Both the position numbers and the translations under genes were made by a program. Positions 37,283 to 51,603 of a stretch of 64,000 bases of DNA are shown piece after piece. Source of the DNA: an uncultured Bacilli bacterium (GTDB lineage Bacteria > Bacillota_I > Bacilli_A > RF39 > UBA660); NCBI GenBank assembly GCA_934130005.1, contig CAKOXD010000001.1:705-64704 (forward strand), given 5' to 3'. Under the pieces are notes generated by a model, which saw only the letters and a program-made list of their open reading frames with translations, was not told the origin of the DNA and did not search any database. The stretch's first letter is position 1. Every line of letters starts with the position of its first letter.

Positions 37283-38146
37283 ATGGAATATATAGAAGAA
37301 TATATAAAATATTTACTTATAGATAAAAAATATAGTGATAACACAATTAAATCATATAAAAATGATTTATGCGAATTATATAATTTTTATAAAAATAAGG
37401 ATATAACTAAATTAGAAAAAAAACATTTACTAAAGTTTATAGAAGATGCTAAAAAAACAAGAAATGAAAAAACAATATCCCATTTTATTACAGTATTTAG
37501 AGGATTTTATAAATATTTAGTAATAGAAGAAGTAATAAAAGAAAGTAAAGCAGATAATTTAATACTTCCAAAGATAAAAAAAACACTTCCTAGAGTATTA
37601 TCTGTTGAAGAAGTAGATAACCTATTAAATATACCATTAAACAATAAATATGATTATAGAAATAAAGCAATGTTAGAACTTATGTATTCAACAGGAATCA
37701 GAATAAGTGAACTAATTAATATTAAAATTCATGATTTAAATATTAATAACTGTACTTTAAAAATAATGGGTAAAGGAAATAAAGAAAGAATAATACCAGT
37801 AGGAGATTATGCTTTAAAATATTTAACAATCTATATAGAAAACTATAGAAAAGAATTTATCAAAAAAAATACAGATTATTTATTCTTATCAACACACGGT
37901 ACATTAATGACAAGACAAGCATTTTTTAGAATTGTAAAAAAAATAGCAAAAGAGAAAAATATAAAAACAGAATTCTCACCACATACATTAAGACATAGTT
38001 TTGCTACTCATATGTTAGAAAATGGAGCAGATTTAAGAAGTATACAAGAGTTACTTGGACACTCAAGTCTTTCAACAACACAAATATATACAAATGTATC
38101 AAATAAATTTATAAAAGAAAATTATAAAAAACACCCACATAGTTAA
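37283..38146 (+). CDS. xerD: Tyrosine recombinase XerD
   Basis: Contains the R...HTLRHSFATHML...LGHSSLSTTQIYT catalytic signature. Its size and synteny with deoB match Bacillus ripX. Confidence 0.88.
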   Translation: MEYIEEYIKYLLIDKKYSDNTIKSYKNDLCELYNFYKNKDITKLEKKHLLKFIEDAKKTRNEKTISHFITVFRGFYKYLVIEEVIKESKADNLILPKIKKTLPRVLSVEEVDNLLNIPLNNKYDYRNKAMLELMYSTGIRISELINIKIHDLNINNCTLKIMGKGNKERIIPVGDYALKYLTIYIENYRKEFIKKNTDYLFLSTHGTLMTRQAFFRIVKKIAKEKNIKTEFSPHTLRHSFATHMLENGADLRSIQELLGHSSLSTTQIYTNVSNKFIKENYKKHPHS

Positions 38147-43581: not shown

Positions 43582-44325
43582 ATGAATTCTACTTTCATTT
43601 CTTTTTTACTTACTATAATAGCAGGTCTTTCTACATTAATAGGAAGCATAGTAATATTTATAAAAAATAATAATAAAGAAAAAATAATAATATCTTCTTT
43701 AGCATTTGCATCATCTGTAATGTTTTTTATTTCAATAACTGATCTTATTCCAGAATCCTATAACATGTTTAAAAATACCTTTAAAACATTTCCACTTATA
43801 ATGATTATTTTAATTAATATTAACATTGGAATAATACTGTCATTTTATATAAAAAAATATATACCTGAAAAAGAGGATAATTTATATAAAGTAGGATTAA
43901 TATCAATGCTTGCTATTATAATACATAATATACCAGAAGGTATGGCAACCTTTATGGCAAGTAACACAAATATAAACCTTGGAATATCACTTACAATAGC
44001 TATAGCACTTCATAATATACCAGAAGGTATAAGTATAGCTGTACCTATATATTATTCAACAAACAGCAAAACAAAAGCAATTTTGTATACATTTATATCA
44101 GGACTATCAGAAGTATTCGGAGCACTAATAACATACCTATTTTTAAAACCATTTATAAATGATTTTACTATGGGAATATTATTTTCTTTAATAGCTGGCA
44201 TAATGATGCATATATCAATATTTGAACTTTTAAAAACATCATTAAGTTATAATAAAAAAAATATAGTAAAAATCTCATTTTTATTTGGAACTATATTTGT
44301 TATATTAAGTAAATTTATATTTTAA
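43582..44325 (+). CDS. zupT: ZIP-family zinc transporter
   Basis: Contains two HNIPEG motifs and is a polytopic membrane protein. Confidence 0.88.
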   Translation: MNSTFISFLLTIIAGLSTLIGSIVIFIKNNNKEKIIISSLAFASSVMFFISITDLIPESYNMFKNTFKTFPLIMIILININIGIILSFYIKKYIPEKEDNLYKVGLISMLAIIIHNIPEGMATFMASNTNINLGISLTIAIALHNIPEGISIAVPIYYSTNSKTKAILYTFISGLSEVFGALITYLFLKPFINDFTMGILFSLIAGIMMHISIFELLKTSLSYNKKNIVKISFLFGTIFVILSKFIF

Positions 44326-44342
44326 TTAAAATAGGGTACAAT

Positions 44343-44366
44343 AAAAAGAGATTTATATCTCTTTTT
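44343..44366. terminator. Bidirectional terminator hairpin
   Basis: Stem AAAGAGAT/ATCTCTTT flanked by A and T runs, lying between convergent genes. Confidence 0.6.
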
Positions 44367-44376
44367 ACTTGGGTTA

Positions 44377-44565
44377 TTATCTTAATTCAAAAGAATGATC
44401 ATCATTGTCATCTAATTTAAAAGATTTAGATTCATTTTTAAAACCAATGTTTTCTTTATCTGTTACTTTATTATTAGATTTATTAGAAACATTTTTTGAA
44501 TTACAATCAGTTATATTATTATTACTTTTATTAGTAATATTTGATTGTTTTTTATTCTTTTTCAT
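44377..44565 (-). CDS. Small Asn/Lys/Ser-rich hydrophilic protein (62 aa)
   Basis: GGGTGATATAA precedes the ATG, matching the SD and spacing used by many genes in this window. Confidence 0.45.
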   Translation of the reverse strand: MKKNKKQSNITNKSNNNITDCNSKNVSNKSNNKVTDKENIGFKNESKSFKLDDNDDHSFELR

Positions 44566-44677
44566 TTATATCACCCATTATTTATTATGAAACTAAATTA
44601 TTAAAATATAATTGGAAAATAATGTATTTTTTTTAGTAATTATATGTTATAATTATTAAGAATGGGAGAGTATATTA

Positions 44678-46606
44678 ATGAATAAAAATGGAAATAATAA
44701 AAAGATACTACTTATTTTTATTATTTTTATATTAATATTTTTATCTATTATTTTAACCTATAATTTAGTTTTTAAAGAAAAAAAAATAACAAGAACAATT
44801 ATGATTTATATGGTAGGAGCTGATTTAGAAAGTAAATCAGGACTTGCTACTACCGATTTAAAAGGTATTAGTTATAATAAAATGGATAATAAAAATATTA
44901 ATGTAATATTAATAGCTGGTGGTACAGAAAAATGGGATAATTCATTTATAAATGAAAATGAAACTTCAATATTTGAACTAAAAGAAAATGGGTTTGAAAA
45001 AGTAAAAACTCAAAATCTAAAAAACATGGGTGATGAAACAGTATTTAAAGATTACCTAAATTATGTATATGATAATTATAAAACAGATAAATATGATTTA
45101 ATTTTTTGGAATCATGGTGGAGCAATTTATGGTAGTCAAATGGATGAAATAAGCAATGATGTTTTATCATTAGATGAAATGAAAAATGGATTAAAAAAAT
45201 CAAGATTTAATAATAAGAAATTAGAAACCATCATTTTTAGAACGTGCTTAAATGGAACATTAGAAGTTGCTAATACATTAGAAGATTATTCTAAATATTT
45301 AGTCGCATCAGAAGAAATAACTTATGGTACTCCATTTACAAATGTGCTTAATTTTATCAATAAAATAAATACAAATGATACAGGCTATGATATAGGATAT
45401 AAATTTATAGAATCATATAAAGAACATATAAAAACATTAAAAAGTACATACTCACAAGATAGTAATATCTATTCTACATATTCAATAGTAAACTTAAATA
45501 AAATTAAAAATTTAACTCAATCATTAAATGAATTTATAAAAAATATAGATTTAAAAAATAATTACAATGAAATATCACGTATAAGAAGTAATTTATACCA
45601 ATATGCATATACACAAAGTGATAGTGCTGAATATGATATGGTAGATTTATACAATTTAATAAATAAACTTAAAAAATACGATGAAAAATCCGCAAAAAAG
45701 GTACTTAGCAACATAGAAAGTGCTGTAGAATATAACTGGGCTACGAATAATAATTCAAGAGGAATAAGTATATATTTTCCATATAATGCAGATAAAAATG
45801 TAAAAAAATTATTTTTAAATATATATAGTAACTTTAAAAATCTAGATGATTATTATAATTTTATAAAAGAATTTTATTCAATTCAAAATAATAATAACTA
45901 TTCTTATTCATTTAGTAGTAATAAATTAAATATATCATCTAATAAAAATGAAGCTGATTTTAAGTTAGAATTAACAGACGAGCAAAAAGAAGGATTTGCA
46001 AATGCAAAATATATTGTATTTAAAGATAATAAAGATGGGTATTACCAGCCAGTATACATAGGACAGCAGACAACTTTAAATGGCAATATATTAAGTGCTA
46101 ATATAAAAGATAGACAATTAAAAGTAGTAGATAAAACAGATAAGAGTTTTAAAGGATATATTTTAACACTAATAGAATCTGAAGTTACAGATCAATATAT
46201 AAAATATAATACAAATGTAATTTTGCAAAACTTTAAAGACATTAAAAATTATAAAATGGATAATGCTCAAATGAATTTAATATTAAATAAAAAAAATAAT
46301 AAAATTTCAATTAATAACGTTATTTTAAATAATAAAAATAATTTAAAACCAAATATAGCAAGTGTAAATTTAAGCGAATATAAGAACATAGCATTTGGAA
46401 GTTTTAAATATAAAATATTAGATAGTAATGGTAATTATAAAACAGATTGGAACAGCAATGGTATATATGAAGGCGTAGAAATAGATGTAAAAGATATAGA
46501 TTTTGAAATACAAAACTTTGAAAATGATTATGATTATTATACAGTGTTTATGATAAAAGATACAAATAACAAAACATATTATTCAAAATTAATAAAAATG
46601 AATTAG
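44678..46606 (+). CDS. Clostripain-like (C11) cysteine peptidase with an N-terminal membrane anchor
   Basis: Contains IMIYMVGADLES, the His context FWNHGGA and the Cys context FRTCLNG. Confidence 0.75.
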   Translation: MNKNGNNKKILLIFIIFILIFLSIILTYNLVFKEKKITRTIMIYMVGADLESKSGLATTDLKGISYNKMDNKNINVILIAGGTEKWDNSFINENETSIFELKENGFEKVKTQNLKNMGDETVFKDYLNYVYDNYKTDKYDLIFWNHGGAIYGSQMDEISNDVLSLDEMKNGLKKSRFNNKKLETIIFRTCLNGTLEVANTLEDYSKYLVASEEITYGTPFTNVLNFINKINTNDTGYDIGYKFIESYKEHIKTLKSTYSQDSNIYSTYSIVNLNKIKNLTQSLNEFIKNIDLKNNYNEISRIRSNLYQYAYTQSDSAEYDMVDLYNLINKLKKYDEKSAKKVLSNIESAVEYNWATNNNSRGISIYFPYNADKNVKKLFLNIYSNFKNLDDYYNFIKEFYSIQNNNNYSYSFSSNKLNISSNKNEADFKLELTDEQKEGFANAKYIVFKDNKDGYYQPVYIGQQTTLNGNILSANIKDRQLKVVDKTDKSFKGYILTLIESEVTDQYIKYNTNVILQNFKDIKNYKMDNAQMNLILNKKNNKISINNVILNNKNNLKPNIASVNLSEYKNIAFGSFKYKILDSNGNYKTDWNSNGIYEGVEIDVKDIDFEIQNFENDYDYYTVFMIKDTNNKTYYSKLIKMN

Positions 46607-46620
46607 GAGTGTGATATATA

Positions 46621-47535
46621 ATGAATAATTGTAAAAAATGTGGTACAAATATAAATCCAGGAGAAAAATTTTGTAGAAACTGTGGTGAACCAACAGGACT
46701 AATAAAAACAGACAATTTAGAAGAGAGTAGGGTAGTAGTTAATGAATCCCCTATCACTAATAATCAAGACAATATAAATAATAATAATTTAAATAATTAT
46801 AATCAACAAAATATTCAAAATCCAACAATAAATAGTAATATAAATAACGCCAATAATAATAAAACAAATAAGAACTATAATCTAATAGCATATATAATAT
46901 TAGCTGGAATAGTTGTTTTACTTGTTGTTGTAATAGGTGTTTTGCTAGTCCTAAATGTTAATAAAGATGATGACAAATCAAATAAACATAGTAATACTAA
47001 TGATTATGAAGAAAAAATTGACAACACAAATGATAATACAACAAACAATACAACAAACAATACAACAAATACAACAGATTCAACTGACAGTGTAACATAT
47101 AAAGGATTTAAATTTTATAAAAAAGCTGGATATACATATCAATCAAATACAAATTCTTTAATTATTACTAGTTCAGGTTATTTTACAGGTATAACAATAT
47201 CATCTGCAACATTTAGTAATATAAAAGCAAATTTAGCTGAATTAGAAGCTCAATATCAAAAAAGTGGTGTTAATATATCAAATTTACAATTAAAAACAAT
47301 AAATAATACAGAAGTTGTTGTGGGTGATAGTACAATTAATGGTTATAAAGGAACTTGGTTTATTATAGAAGCATCTAAAACTGGATATATATATCAAGGA
47401 TATGTAACTAATAAATCATACACAACAAATTACAATGATGTAAGTATACCATTAGAACTTGTAAAAAATGCTGAATATGTAGGAAACTACAATAGTTATT
47501 CATCATCATCAGATATAAGTAATATTGCAAAATAA
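46621..47535 (+). CDS. Zinc-ribbon membrane protein with an N-rich low-complexity linker
   Basis: Begins CKKCGTNINPGEKFCRNCG. It has one TM helix and an extracellular C-terminal domain. Confidence 0.65.
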   Translation: MNNCKKCGTNINPGEKFCRNCGEPTGLIKTDNLEESRVVVNESPITNNQDNINNNNLNNYNQQNIQNPTINSNINNANNNKTNKNYNLIAYIILAGIVVLLVVVIGVLLVLNVNKDDDKSNKHSNTNDYEEKIDNTNDNTTNNTTNNTTNTTDSTDSVTYKGFKFYKKAGYTYQSNTNSLIITSSGYFTGITISSATFSNIKANLAELEAQYQKSGVNISNLQLKTINNTEVVVGDSTINGYKGTWFIIEASKTGYIYQGYVTNKSYTTNYNDVSIPLELVKNAEYVGNYNSYSSSSDISNIAK

Positions 47536-47537
47536 AA

Positions 47538-47562
47538 GCGTATAAATCATATACGTTTTTTT
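47538..47562 (+). terminator. Rho-independent terminator
   Basis: Stem CGTATA/TATACG followed by T7. Confidence 0.6.
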
Positions 47563-47578
47563 ATTTCAAATTTTAAAA

Positions 47579-47606
47579 AGTTAACATAATATATATTATA
47601 GGAACT
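47579..47606 (-). other. dif: dif-like XerC/XerD chromosome dimer resolution site
   Basis: The minus strand reads AGTTCCTATAA-TATATA-TTATGTTAACT. This matches the B. subtilis dif sequence as I recall it (ACTTCCTAGAA-TATATA-TTATGTAAACT) at 25 of 28 positions. It is intergenic and lies at the gene-strand switch. Confidence 0.7.
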
Positions 47607-47622
47607 AATTAAAACAATATAC

Positions 47623-47730
47623 TTAATATATCATATATTGCTTTATCTTACTGAACATAACTAATAAAGTTATAAATGCAAATATCACTATAACTATCAT
47701 ACCAATTGGTGTAGATACTTTATTATTCAT
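47623..47730 (-). CDS. 35-aa hydrophobic micro-protein (MNNKVSTPIGMIVIVIFAFITLLVMFSKIKQYMIY)
   Basis: AAAGGAGAAAAG lies directly before the ATG. It starts 11 nt after the stop of the HTH gene. It is below the track cut-off. Confidence 0.5.
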   Translation of the reverse strand: MNNKVSTPIGMIVIVIFAFITLLVMFSKIKQYMIY

Positions 47731-47741
47731 CTTTTCTCCTT

Positions 47742-48518
47742 TTAAGATAATTTTCTTGATTCTATCTCAGCTATTTTTTCAAACACTTCTGCAGCATTAC
47801 TATCTGTTATTTCAGTATATCCTAATTCTTTCAATGCTTGTACTTTAATTGAATTAAGTTCTAATGTTCTACCAATTTTTTCTTCCATACGTTGTTCTAT
47901 CTTATTTACAAATCTTTTATGGGCCTCTGCAATCTTATTACTAGAAACACTACCACCATCATATAATGTCATTGCAGAAAACATAATACTTTCAAAAACA
48001 AATTGTTCTTCTTCATTAAATACAAATTCTAATGGTTTTGTAAAACCTGCTGATTTAGATACATATGCTAAAATATATTTAAGTTCTTTAGTACTATTCA
48101 TTGCTTGTAAAAAATGATATAAATATAATAGTTCATTATATGTTTTCTCAGAATCATCATCTTCTATATTTTCTTTTATTAAATTAATGATATTAGATAA
48201 TAAATCTTTATTTTTTTCATTTAATCCATTATATATCTCATCAACATTAATATTACTTTTATTATTATTTTCAAATAAAGTTTCAATTCTAGATTCAACT
48301 TCTACTATATAATCAGTATCAACTTTTATATTTTCTAATTCTTCAGCAGATTTTATTCCTAATAAATTTAATAATAAAACTTTTTTGTCTTTAGGCCATT
48401 TATTTAAATCATCAAGTTCTAAATAATTATATATCATTTGTCTAGATACACCTAAAAATTTAGCTAATTTAACTTTTGAAATTCCAAGTTCATGAAGTAT
48501 TTCATTTAATCTTTCCAT
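47742..48518 (-). CDS. XRE-like HTH protein with an uncharacterised C-terminal domain
   Basis: Has the N-terminal HTH segment LGISKVKLAKFLGVSRQMIYNYL. Confidence 0.6.
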   Translation of the reverse strand: MERLNEILHELGISKVKLAKFLGVSRQMIYNYLELDDLNKWPKDKKVLLLNLLGIKSAEELENIKVDTDYIVEVESRIETLFENNNKSNINVDEIYNGLNEKNKDLLSNIINLIKENIEDDDSEKTYNELLYLYHFLQAMNSTKELKYILAYVSKSAGFTKPLEFVFNEEEQFVFESIMFSAMTLYDGGSVSSNKIAEAHKRFVNKIEQRMEEKIGRTLELNSIKVQALKELGYTEITDSNAAEVFEKIAEIESRKLS

Positions 48519-48587: not shown

Positions 48588-49694
48588 TTATAAATACCAT
48601 ACTTTTTCATTGTTTTTTCTTACCTCTTTTATTATTCCCCCACCTAAACATTCTTCACCTAGATAAAGGACGCATGCTTGTCCTGGCGTTACAGATTTAA
48701 CTTTATTTGGATATTTAACAAGTATTTCATTATTATCTAAATATTCTAATATTACATCATTATCTTTTTGTCTATATCTGAATTTAGCACTACACTTTTC
48801 AGGTCTTTCATCACTAATAAAATTAACATTATCGATTATACATGAATCTGAATATAAATATTCATTTTCGTCGCCAAATGCTACATATAAAATATTTTCT
48901 TTTAAATTTTTTCCAACGACAAACATTCTAGATGAATTTCCACCAATATTTAATCCTTTTCTTTGTCCTATTGTATAATACATAAGGCCAATATGCTCAC
49001 CTATTTTTTCATTTGTTTCTATATCTATAATATCTCCTGGAATATTTGGTAAATAATTCTCTAAAAATTTAGAAAAATTTCTTTCACCTATAAAACATAT
49101 ACCAGTAGAATCTTTTTTATTATAAGTAATAAGCCCATTTTCCTTTGCAATATCTCTTATTTCACTTTTAGTAAGATTACCTACCGGAAATATCACATTT
49201 TCTAATTGTTTTTCCGTTACTTGAGATAAAAAATATGTTTGATCTTTATTATTGTCTATGCCTCTTAATAATTTTCCATTTTCTAATCTAGCAAAATGCC
49301 CAGTTGCTATATAATCAGCACCTAATTCTTTTGCTTTATTTAAAAACATATCAAATTTAATATACTTGTTACACATTATATCAGGATTAGGAGTTCTCCC
49401 TTTTTTTAATTCATCTAAAAAATACGTAAAAACATAATCCCAATATTCTTTTACAAAATCAACTCTTTTAAGCGGTATTCCTATTTTTTCACAAATCATA
49501 AGTGCATCATTGTAATCTTGTTCTTGAGGACAAATATTTTCACCTAATGTAGGGTTACCTAATGTATCATTATTTAAATTAGCGTCCCAATTTCTCATGA
49601 AAAGCCCTATTACATCATAACCTTGCTTTTTTAGTAAAAGAGCTGATACACTACTATCCACTCCCCCACTTATACCTACTACAACTTTTTTCAC
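48588..49694 (-). CDS. mnmA: tRNA 2-thiouridine(34) synthase
   Basis: Contains VVVGISGGVDSSV (PP-loop). GGTGATATA precedes GTG 49694. The track start further upstream is less likely. Confidence 0.9.
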   Translation of the reverse strand: MKKVVVGISGGVDSSVSALLLKKQGYDVIGLFMRNWDANLNNDTLGNPTLGENICPQEQDYNDALMICEKIGIPLKRVDFVKEYWDYVFTYFLDELKKGRTPNPDIMCNKYIKFDMFLNKAKELGADYIATGHFARLENGKLLRGIDNNKDQTYFLSQVTEKQLENVIFPVGNLTKSEIRDIAKENGLITYNKKDSTGICFIGERNFSKFLENYLPNIPGDIIDIETNEKIGEHIGLMYYTIGQRKGLNIGGNSSRMFVVGKNLKENILYVAFGDENEYLYSDSCIIDNVNFISDERPEKCSAKFRYRQKDNDVILEYLDNNEILVKYPNKVKSVTPGQACVLYLGEECLGGGIIKEVRKNNEKVWYL

Positions 49695-49748
49695 TATATC
49701 ACCAACTTCTACATATATTTTATCATATTTTAACAAAAAAAGTTATTA

Positions 49749-50354
49749 TTAAAATAACTTTATTAAATTTGGAACTATAAAAGTTTCATAAATTGTTGTT
49801 ATTAAAATTACTGCTAATGAAATAAATAATATATTTATATATTTATTCATCATAGTTTTAAAATTAAGATTTTTTTTCTTAAAAATAGCATATATAAGTG
49901 TTAAAGAAAAATTAATTGTAAAATATATTAATATAGTGTATATAATTAAATTAATTAAATTATGGGGAACAATATATATAAACGCATATAAACATCCCTT
50001 TATTTTATAAGTTAAAATAAATGATGAAATTGAAAAACCCATAATAAAAGACTTTATAAAATAATAAAATATATTAATTGGTATACCAATTACAGACATT
50101 CCAAGTAGCCATACAATTATGATGAATGATAAATTTTCTAAAAATATATTTTTAAATGAATCAAAATAACTAATTTTATCAATATTATTTAAATATGATG
50201 TTATATAGTTTTTTACAAGAGCTTGGTCACTTTTTGATATTACAGTAATAAATATAACCCCTGAAATAAAACCAAATAGCGTAATTCCTAGTAAAAATAA
50301 TAATCCATTTTTATTAATTTTTAATTTTTTTCTTACTTTTTCTATTATATTCAT
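49749..50354 (-). CDS. spoIIM: Stage II sporulation protein M
   Basis: About 200-aa polytopic protein with the SpoIIM-like central FLENLSFIIIVWLLGMSVIGIPINIFYYFIKSF segment. Confidence 0.7.
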   Translation of the reverse strand: MNIIEKVRKKLKINKNGLLFLLGITLFGFISGVIFITVISKSDQALVKNYITSYLNNIDKISYFDSFKNIFLENLSFIIIVWLLGMSVIGIPINIFYYFIKSFIMGFSISSFILTYKIKGCLYAFIYIVPHNLINLIIYTILIYFTINFSLTLIYAIFKKKNLNFKTMMNKYINILFISLAVILITTIYETFIVPNLIKLF

Positions 50355-50568: not shown

Positions 50569-51603
50569 TTATATATTGTCAACTTTGTCATGTAAAGATC
50601 TATTAATACTTCCACCAATTATATCAGCTAATTTTTCTATTACAAAATCTATTTCTTTAGGCGTTACCATTAAATTGTATCCAATAGGATTTAATACTTC
50701 AAAAACTAATTCTTTTATTTCTAAATCATTAAAATTACCAAGTAATCCTAATAACTCTTTTTTATCATTATCAGTTACTTCTAAATCTTTTTTTAAATAA
50801 TTAACACTGCTGCTAAGTGTTAATTTACTCATAGGGTTATTTTGAAATTTTTTATTAAATACATAATGTTTTTGCATATATTTTATAGTATCACTAACTA
50901 TTATAGTAGCATCTACAACAGTTGGCACTCCAATTGCTATTACGGGAACTTTTATAGTATCATAACTTATTTCTTTTCTTTTGTTTCCTACCCCACTTCC
51001 AGGATGTATTCCAGTATCTGTTATTTGTATTGTTTTATTTAATCTATCAATAGAACCACTAGCAAGTGAATCTATACATATTAAAAAATTAGGTTTTATA
51101 AGATTTACAATACTTTTTATAAGTTCACTTGTTTCAATTCCTGTAACTCCAGTCACATTAGGGGAAATAGCAGCCACTGGTCTAAATCCCTCTTCTAATT
51201 CATCTATTTCATATAAATGATTAGTTACAATTATATTTTTTATAGATATTGGTCCTAATGAATCAGGAGTTGACTTTTCATTTCCAAGACCAATAATTAA
51301 ACAAGAATCATCTTTTTTTATATCTAGTTTTTTTAGGAATTTATCTAATTCATCTTTCAAAACTTTCTTTACTTTTTCTTTATTATTATAATCTGTTATA
51401 TCATCAAATTTTATCGTTACATACATACCTTTCTTTTTATTTAATAATTTACTATCATTTTCATTTAAATTTACTGTAGTAACTACTATATCATCTTCTT
51501 GTTTTACTTTAGAGTCAATATTATTTATGTTATTATTTTCTATTACTTCATCAATTAAATCAGTTCTAAATTCATATTTATTTAAATCAATTTCATGATT
51601 CAT
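50569..51603 (-). CDS. gpr: Germination protease GPR (A25)
   Basis: Contains IIGLGNEKSTPDSLGP and IDSLA motifs. It is divergent from rpsT, as in Bacillus. Confidence 0.85.
   Translation of the reverse strand: MNHEIDLNKYEFRTDLIDEVIENNNINNIDSKVKQEDDIVVTTVNLNENDSKLLNKKKGMYVTIKFDDITDYNNKEKVKKVLKDELDKFLKKLDIKKDDSCLIIGLGNEKSTPDSLGPISIKNIIVTNHLYEIDELEEGFRPVAAISPNVTGVTGIETSELIKSIVNLIKPNFLICIDSLASGSIDRLNKTIQITDTGIHPGSGVGNKRKEISYDTIKVPVIAIGVPTVVDATIIVSDTIKYMQKHYVFNKKFQNNPMSKLTLSSSVNYLKKDLEVTDNDKKELLGLLGNFNDLEIKELVFEVLNPIGYNLMVTPKEIDFVIEKLADIIGGSINRSLHDKVDNI

Follow-up and report, generated by a model that had tools for sequence, protein, structure and literature searches.

The Xer systems of streptococci and lactococci (XerS/difSL) and of epsilon-proteobacteria (XerH/difH) each combine one recombinase with an atypical site, which is 31 bp long in the case of difSL. 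Sites of the dif type are also exploited by foreign DNA. For example, CTX phage, TLC and the gonococcal genetic island are Xer-exploiting integrated elements (IMEX) that integrate at dif. The two described sites closest to the one considered here are those of Bacillus subtilis (ACTTCCTAGAATATATATTATGTAAACT) and Escherichia coli (GGTGCGCATAATGTATATTATGTTAAAT) (Kono et al. 2011, PMC3025954).

Here, a site of this kind is described from an uncultured member of the Bacilli whose genome is small, has a GC content of 23%, and includes sporulation genes. The analysis started from a window, i.e., the whole stretch of 64,000 nt covering positions 705–64704 of contig C1; coordinates without a contig name are those of the window. 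A 28-mer on the minus strand at 47579–47606 (C1:48283–48310) is very probably the organism's chromosome dimer resolution site (dif), to judge from its sequence and surroundings. Support for this call comes from every usual computational criterion, namely the architecture of the site, its similarity to known dif sequences, its presence as a single copy, its intergenic position at a long-range GC-skew switch, the conserved copy at the same place in relatives, and the genes for XerC, XerD and an FtsK with a gamma domain. The site belongs to a thoroughly known kind, and is an ordinary, expected landmark.

Sequence and immediate setting of the site

On the minus strand, the 28-mer reads AGTTCCTATAA, TATATA and TTATGTTAACT in succession (plus-strand letters at 47579–47606: AGTTAACATAATATATATTATAGGAACT). 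This is the 11-6-11 layout with a TATATA centre that the original prediction had claimed: two 11-bp arms, partly palindromic through their inner ATAA and TTAT, on either side of a 6-bp centre. Like B. subtilis dif, the site of CodV (XerC) and RipX (XerD), it is 28 bp long with an 11-6-11 layout, and it is identical to that sequence at 25 of 28 positions, including the entire TATATA. The B. subtilis sequence behind the original prediction agrees with the one given in PMC3025954, and the count of 25/28 holds. It departs from the B. subtilis site at three bases, two of them in the XerC arm (C2G, G9T) and one in the XerD arm (A24T). Owing to A24T, this XerD arm resembles its E. coli counterpart more than the B. 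subtilis arm does. Indeed, a single base separates the right arm, TTATGTTAACT, from the XerD arm in E. coli (TTATGTTAAAT), again as predicted. The architecture is likewise that of E. coli dif, whereas the XerC arm is largely different, giving an overall identity of 22/28.

By analogy with the B. subtilis and E. coli sites (PMC3025954), the position of AGTTCCTATAA (47596–47606, minus strand) makes it the putative XerC-binding arm; it points to the side of the genome that carries a micro-ORF and a gene for a helix-turn-helix (HTH) protein. The putative XerD-binding arm, TTATGTTAACT (47579–47589, minus strand), is near-invariant in relatives and points to the side with the genes for a zinc-ribbon protein and a C11 peptidase.

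The site was predicted to be intergenic, between a terminator and a micro-ORF, and it does lie in an 87-bp gap with convergent ORFs from the ORF list on either side. It starts 44 nt past the stop of a plus-strand ORF of 304 aa (46621–47535) and ends 16 nt short of the stop of a minus-strand ORF of 35 aa (47623–47730). A plus-strand hairpin followed by a U run (47534–47566, with the hairpin at ~47534–47560) folds at −8.7 kcal/mol, with z = −5.7 relative to shuffles, and is a probable intrinsic terminator of the gene for the 304-aa zinc-ribbon protein. A consensus terminator scanner called no terminator in 47300–47900; it misses this hairpin because the stem has fewer than three G-C pairs and the scanner requires three. 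The 35-aa micro-ORF encodes a hydrophobic peptide, has a GGAG ribosome-binding site, and begins 11 nt past the stop of the HTH-protein gene. A search of Pfam gave no family match for it, and no equivalent ORF was seen in the same-genus genome inspected (G001); it is at most a candidate gene.

Could such a sequence have arisen by chance? The genome is 77% A+T, and the central 14 bases of the site (ATAATATATATTAT) are palindromic and of low complexity, which are the features expected if the 28-mer were a functionless, AT-rich near-palindrome. Against this, the site has three mismatches to B. subtilis dif, as compared with seven for the next-best match in the whole assembly. Among 30 genomes of equal size simulated with an order-3 Markov model, the best match had five mismatches in 3, six in 14 and seven in 13, and never three; likewise, no match at ≤3 mismatches turned up in 100 shuffled versions of the window. 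Moreover, the C, the G and the other discriminating outer bases are kept in relatives, at the same syntenic position at a skew switch, and a reversed control pattern found no match in any of the 41 genomes searched for relatives of the site (0/41). A chance origin is thus vanishingly improbable, being effectively refuted by the simulations and the relatives' sites. The original prediction had named the AT-rich background as a possible source of spurious similarity; the match to dif is significant against that background.

The assembly scanned comprises 1,070,315 bp, and the 28-mer is present once, a count that refers to the assembled part of a genome represented by 23 unordered contigs at 81% completeness. 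When the site's own sequence is used for the scan, the closest other match (six mismatches) is the reverse strand of dif itself, followed by matches with seven. The dif scan also met two positions, G000:C17:3828 and G000:C19:4195, with an identical 28-mer, which suggests a repeated sequence common to contigs C17 and C19.

The replichore junction and the terminus region

GC skew on C1 is about +0.2 across the 48 kb to the left of dif and about −0.28 across the 129 kb to the right, and on the scale of the window it goes from about +0.2 to about −0.3 at dif. The maximum of the cumulative GC skew is at C1:47448, ~0.8 kb left of dif, and lies on a plateau that reaches to about C1:48500 and takes in dif. 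Gene orientation also switches at the site. In agreement with the counts in the original prediction, the ORF list shows that minus-strand genes take up ~2 kb to the left of dif and ~12 kb to its right, where plus-strand genes take up 3.6 kb. There is one other long-range skew switch in the assembly, from minus to plus at ~3.7 kb on contig C6, just before dnaA (C6:4389–5747); the gene after dnaA (C6:5872–7005) is a putative dnaN, named by its size and position. The switch on C6 is the replication origin. The dif site is at the replichore junction and marks the terminus region. Examination of skew and gene orientation, the check proposed with the original prediction, places the plus-to-minus switch at dif on the contigs, and no better dif match was found elsewhere in the 81%-complete assembly.

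A second terminus, on C12 or C13, was considered and rejected. The skew segments in question are short, lie at contig ends, and are without dif-like sequence. The odd skew at C12:1–7400 coincides with two head-on genes for BspA-type LRR proteins, and that at C13:1–4200 with an integrase island (a phage-type integrase and unknown genes).

The distance between origin and dif was measured in three complete, dif-bearing chromosomes of relatives, the organism's own assembly being unordered. The site is 49.6% of the chromosome away from dnaA in G034 (1,966,006 bp), 50.3% in G038 (2,431,147 bp) and 48.6% in G041 (circular MAG OZ006970.1; 1,517,539 bp). It is in these three chromosomes, at 48.6–50.3% from dnaA, that dif can be said to lie opposite the origin.

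Does a dif at the terminus also mark the point at which the replication forks meet? It is quite possible, if somewhat short of an even chance, that the site is a true dif and the forks nevertheless meet elsewhere, at a place that is fixed in another way or is not fixed at all, such that “terminus” applies to the region only. Replication termination has been placed near dif rather than at dif (Kono et al. 2011, PMC3025954), and the maximum of the cumulative skew is, as noted, slightly off the site. A search for RTP (PF02334) found no homologue in the 81%-complete assembly, although it matched the B. subtilis control; this is a difference from B. subtilis, and it means that a Ter/RTP fork trap cannot be placed. 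Set against these points is the sharpness of the skew switch. It is less than ~1 kb from dif here, and a plus-to-minus switch falls in the same 4-kb bin as the dif copy in all eight relatives whose flanks were examined. Any offset of the fork-meeting point should therefore be small. The predicted “replication terminus” stands as a terminus region with its skew switch at dif, and does not imply the exact point of fork meeting.

Polar words that might orient FtsK were tried as further support and rejected. Both GAGAAGGG and GGGNAGGG are absent from C1, and the absence of the latter, the E. coli KOPS, is a difference from the E. coli system. The word GAAGAAG occurs on C1 35 times on the plus strand and 3 times on the minus strand to the left of dif, and 4 and 92 times, respectively, to the right. 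This strand flip adds nothing, because the base composition on the two sides of dif would by itself give a ratio of ~14 to 1.

Recombinases and conservation in relatives

A XerD-like tyrosine recombinase of 287 aa, with Pfam Phage_integrase and SAM-like N-terminal domains, is encoded on the plus strand at 37283–38146. Its gene is 9.4 kb (gene end) to 10.3 kb (gene start) from dif, in line with the predicted 10 kb. Among the NCBIfam models, the protein scores 320.4 bits with XerD (TIGR02225; cut-off 329.6) and 296.8 with XerC, and its score of 308.5 with the subfamily model NF001399 exceeds the cut-off of 279. Among solved structures, E. coli XerD is its best match (1A0P; E = 1.5e-54). The comparison of catalytic motifs covered this recombinase alone: those with the R, K, H-x-x-R, H and Y are identical in an alignment to E. 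coli XerD. A second recombinase, a XerC-like paralogue of 295 aa, is encoded on the minus strand at C1 ~140.5 kb (L014:1450–2337), 92 kb from dif. It scores 345.3 with the XerC equivalog model TIGR02224 (cut-off 335.15) and 325.1 with the XerD model. The names XerC and XerD are thus putative assignments of the two paralogues, made from relative profile scores. There is a single FtsK/SpoIIIE of 736 aa, encoded on contig C9, with FtsK_4TM, FtsK_alpha, FtsK_SpoIIIE (motor) and FtsK_gamma domains.

How does this set of components compare with the known systems? With B. subtilis, the organism shares two paralogous tyrosine recombinases, a site at the terminus, and a Bacilli genome with sporulation genes; unlike in B. 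subtilis, the genome is ~4 times smaller and xerD is just 10 kb from dif. An FtsK with a gamma domain is a feature in common with E. coli, as are the catalytic motifs of XerD. Linkage of a recombinase gene to the site is reminiscent of XerS/difSL and XerH/difH. Unlike those systems, however, both XerC and XerD are encoded and the site is a canonical 28-bp dif, and the score with the XerS equivalog model is far under its cut-off.

The closeness of xerD and dif differs from the arrangement reported by Kono et al. 2011 (PMC3025954), in which xerD is mostly near the origin and xerC is near dif. A xerD-like gene is found near dif across the class, at 1.4–11 kb in 6/6 relatives, and at ~0.6–5 kb in 37 of 131 loci fetched by dif sequence. 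A further observation concerns contig C4 of the same assembly, where a phage-integrase-family frame of 406 aa with one in-frame TGA (G000:C4:43076–43600; L016) could represent a gene that is broken or frameshifted.

The likely mode of action can be inferred, step by step, by analogy with E. coli and B. subtilis. XerC (CodV-like; C1 ~140.5 kb) would bind the arm AGTTCCTATAA, and XerD (RipX-like; 37283–38146) would bind the arm TTATGTTAACT. Where homologous recombination joins sister chromosomes into a dimer, septum-anchored FtsK/SpoIIIE (C9) would pump DNA until the two copies of dif meet at the closing septum, and would probably also activate XerD. The dimer would then be resolved into monomers by two pairs of strand exchanges, one after the other, across the 6-bp TATATA. 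In its pairing of proteins and arms, in the succession of strand exchanges and in its reliance on FtsK, the system would follow those of E. coli and B. subtilis; nothing new is implied about the mechanism.

Relatives of the site were sought, at ≤3 mismatches, in 41 genomes, namely the organism's own and others from its genus, family, order and class. A match was found in 27 of them (own genome included), with exactly one copy in each. The commonest base has a share per column of 0.95 within the 28-mer, a value that is partly a product of how the matches were selected, and of 0.52 and 0.49 in the two 40-bp flanks. Conservation ends sharply at the edges of the 28-mer, and dif therefore does not belong to any conserved gene or element of greater length. 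The most variable columns are the outer bases of the XerC arm and the first bases of the centre, and the XerD arm is nearly invariant. Variation is usually distributed in this way in dif sites. Gene order around the site is also conserved, with MgsA, xerD and ZIP on one side and the gene for the 258-aa HTH protein, mnmA, spoIIM and gpr on the other. This order applies to the same-genus genomes G001 and G003 and, in part, to G015 and G017 from the family.

The distribution of the sequence is wider than the class. At least 119 other species have a 26-base core of the site, present once at each locus; most of these are uncultured Bacilli, Izemoplasmatales or relatives of Bacillus, with some from other phyla. 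The exact 28-mer, including the G at position 2, is present once in Candidatus Velamenicoccus archaeovorus LiM (G042, NZ_CP019384.1), at 797592–797619. The presence of the exact sequence in an Omnitrophota chromosome indicates that the Firmicutes-type dif consensus is shared between phyla.

Certain genomes have dif in inverted orientation with respect to the conserved flanks on both sides. They include G017 (L009) and a clade of ~56% identity (L059, L093, L095 and others), and the same is seen at L127 and L131, among other loci. In the inverted-dif genomes, the HTH-protein gene faces the XerD arm rather than the XerC arm, and xerD remains on the far side. The site alone has thus flipped in the evolution of the lineage. 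A separate peculiarity is seen in G038 (C1 ~1181686; L008), where the XerD arm is half of a larger inverted repeat, with a second AGTTAACATAAT 24 bp away across a palindromic spacer.

Genes on either side of dif

The original prediction flagged the flanking genes as candidates for elements that exploit Xer. If so, dif would be the junction of an IMEX, or genes beside it would have arrived by Xer-mediated integration. As at IMEX sites, gene content beside dif does vary, and it does so within the genus on the side of the XerD arm. The genes for the C11 (clostripain-family) peptidase (642 aa) and the zinc-ribbon protein (304 aa), which together occupy 44678–47535, are present in this genome (G000) and in G003; G001 has instead ~0.9 kb without convincing genes, and the pair is found in only 2–3 of the 131 dif loci. 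However, this locus differs from IMEX sites in having neither a second dif, whether duplicated or degenerate, nor genes of an element. No second dif-like site was found between ZIP and dif (44000–47579, ≤8 mismatches), the flanks contain no integrase, replication or phage genes, and their base composition is unremarkable. The neighbours of dif are genes for a ZIP transporter, the C11 peptidase, the zinc-ribbon protein, the HTH protein and MnmA, none of which belongs to a mobile element. Insertions and deletions near the terminus are, in addition, common without any involvement of Xer. Xer-mediated integration is therefore highly unlikely, and the variation beside the XerD arm is ordinary terminus plasticity rather than evidence for such integration.

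The genome search for a degenerate second copy, which was to reveal an IMEX, likewise gave only chance-level matches, all of which have seven or more mismatches once the reverse strand of dif itself is set aside. The nearest match on C1 at ≤8 mismatches has eight, is 3.6 kb to the right of dif, and is at chance level. The best other candidates, with seven mismatches, are on other contigs, are within the range expected by chance, and were rejected. One of them, at C2:9415, has a good XerC arm and spacer and a poor XerD arm.

The last sizeable gene before dif on the other side, at 47742–48518 on the minus strand, follows mnmA (48588–49736) and encodes an uncharacterised protein of 258 aa with an N-terminal HTH of the XRE type. 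The protein has a weak Pfam match to HTH_7 only and no match in NCBIfam, and there is no informative name among the best 120 of its 5,130 homologues. A structure model (pLDDT 77, pTM 0.33) has an XRE-like N-terminal domain and a helical C-terminal domain. In a fold search with this model, the matches are to XRE-type HTH domains at the N-terminus only, all with E >0.3, and the helical C-terminal domain had no match.

This gene is the commonest neighbour of dif, being present at 50 of the 131 loci fetched by dif sequence. Its 3' end is always directed at dif, in some cases from a distance of just 6–100 bp; for this genome, and for the linked genomes and loci overall, the distance is given by a range of 30–1200 bp. 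The protein is single-copy in 20/20 sampled genomes of the family, and is also found in two other families at 33–49% identity. Among 24 homologue-bearing genomes from three families, at least 14 have a dif-like site (≤5 mismatches) within 1.2 kb downstream of the gene. The sets used to establish this linkage are loci L162–L185 and many of L042–L160, and the linkage also holds in the clade with dif inverted relative to both flanks. What might the linkage mean? The protein could, instead of being an ordinary regulator, be a factor that acts on dif or on the region of the terminus, but this seems very unlikely. Conserved gene order is the most likely explanation, and is simpler than a role at dif. 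The HTH-protein gene directly follows mnmA in 22 of the 24 genomes, so that these two genes form the conserved unit, with dif downstream.

Beyond mnmA are spoIIM (49749–50354) and gpr, which encodes the germination protease (50569–51603). With these genes in a genome of ~1.1–1.3 Mb and 23% GC, the host would be an unusually small putative spore-former.

What does the site mean for the biology of this lineage? First, the Firmicutes-type dif consensus is nearly unchanged in it. Second, dif and the dnaA gene on C6 together fix both replichore boundaries. Third, dif can serve as a dependable landmark of the terminus in a gut Bacilli lineage that is uncultured, has a reduced genome, and is known only from fragmented metagenome bins. 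Such a landmark is of use for scaffolding, for metagenomic peak-to-trough estimates of replication rate, and for the interpretation of strand bias.
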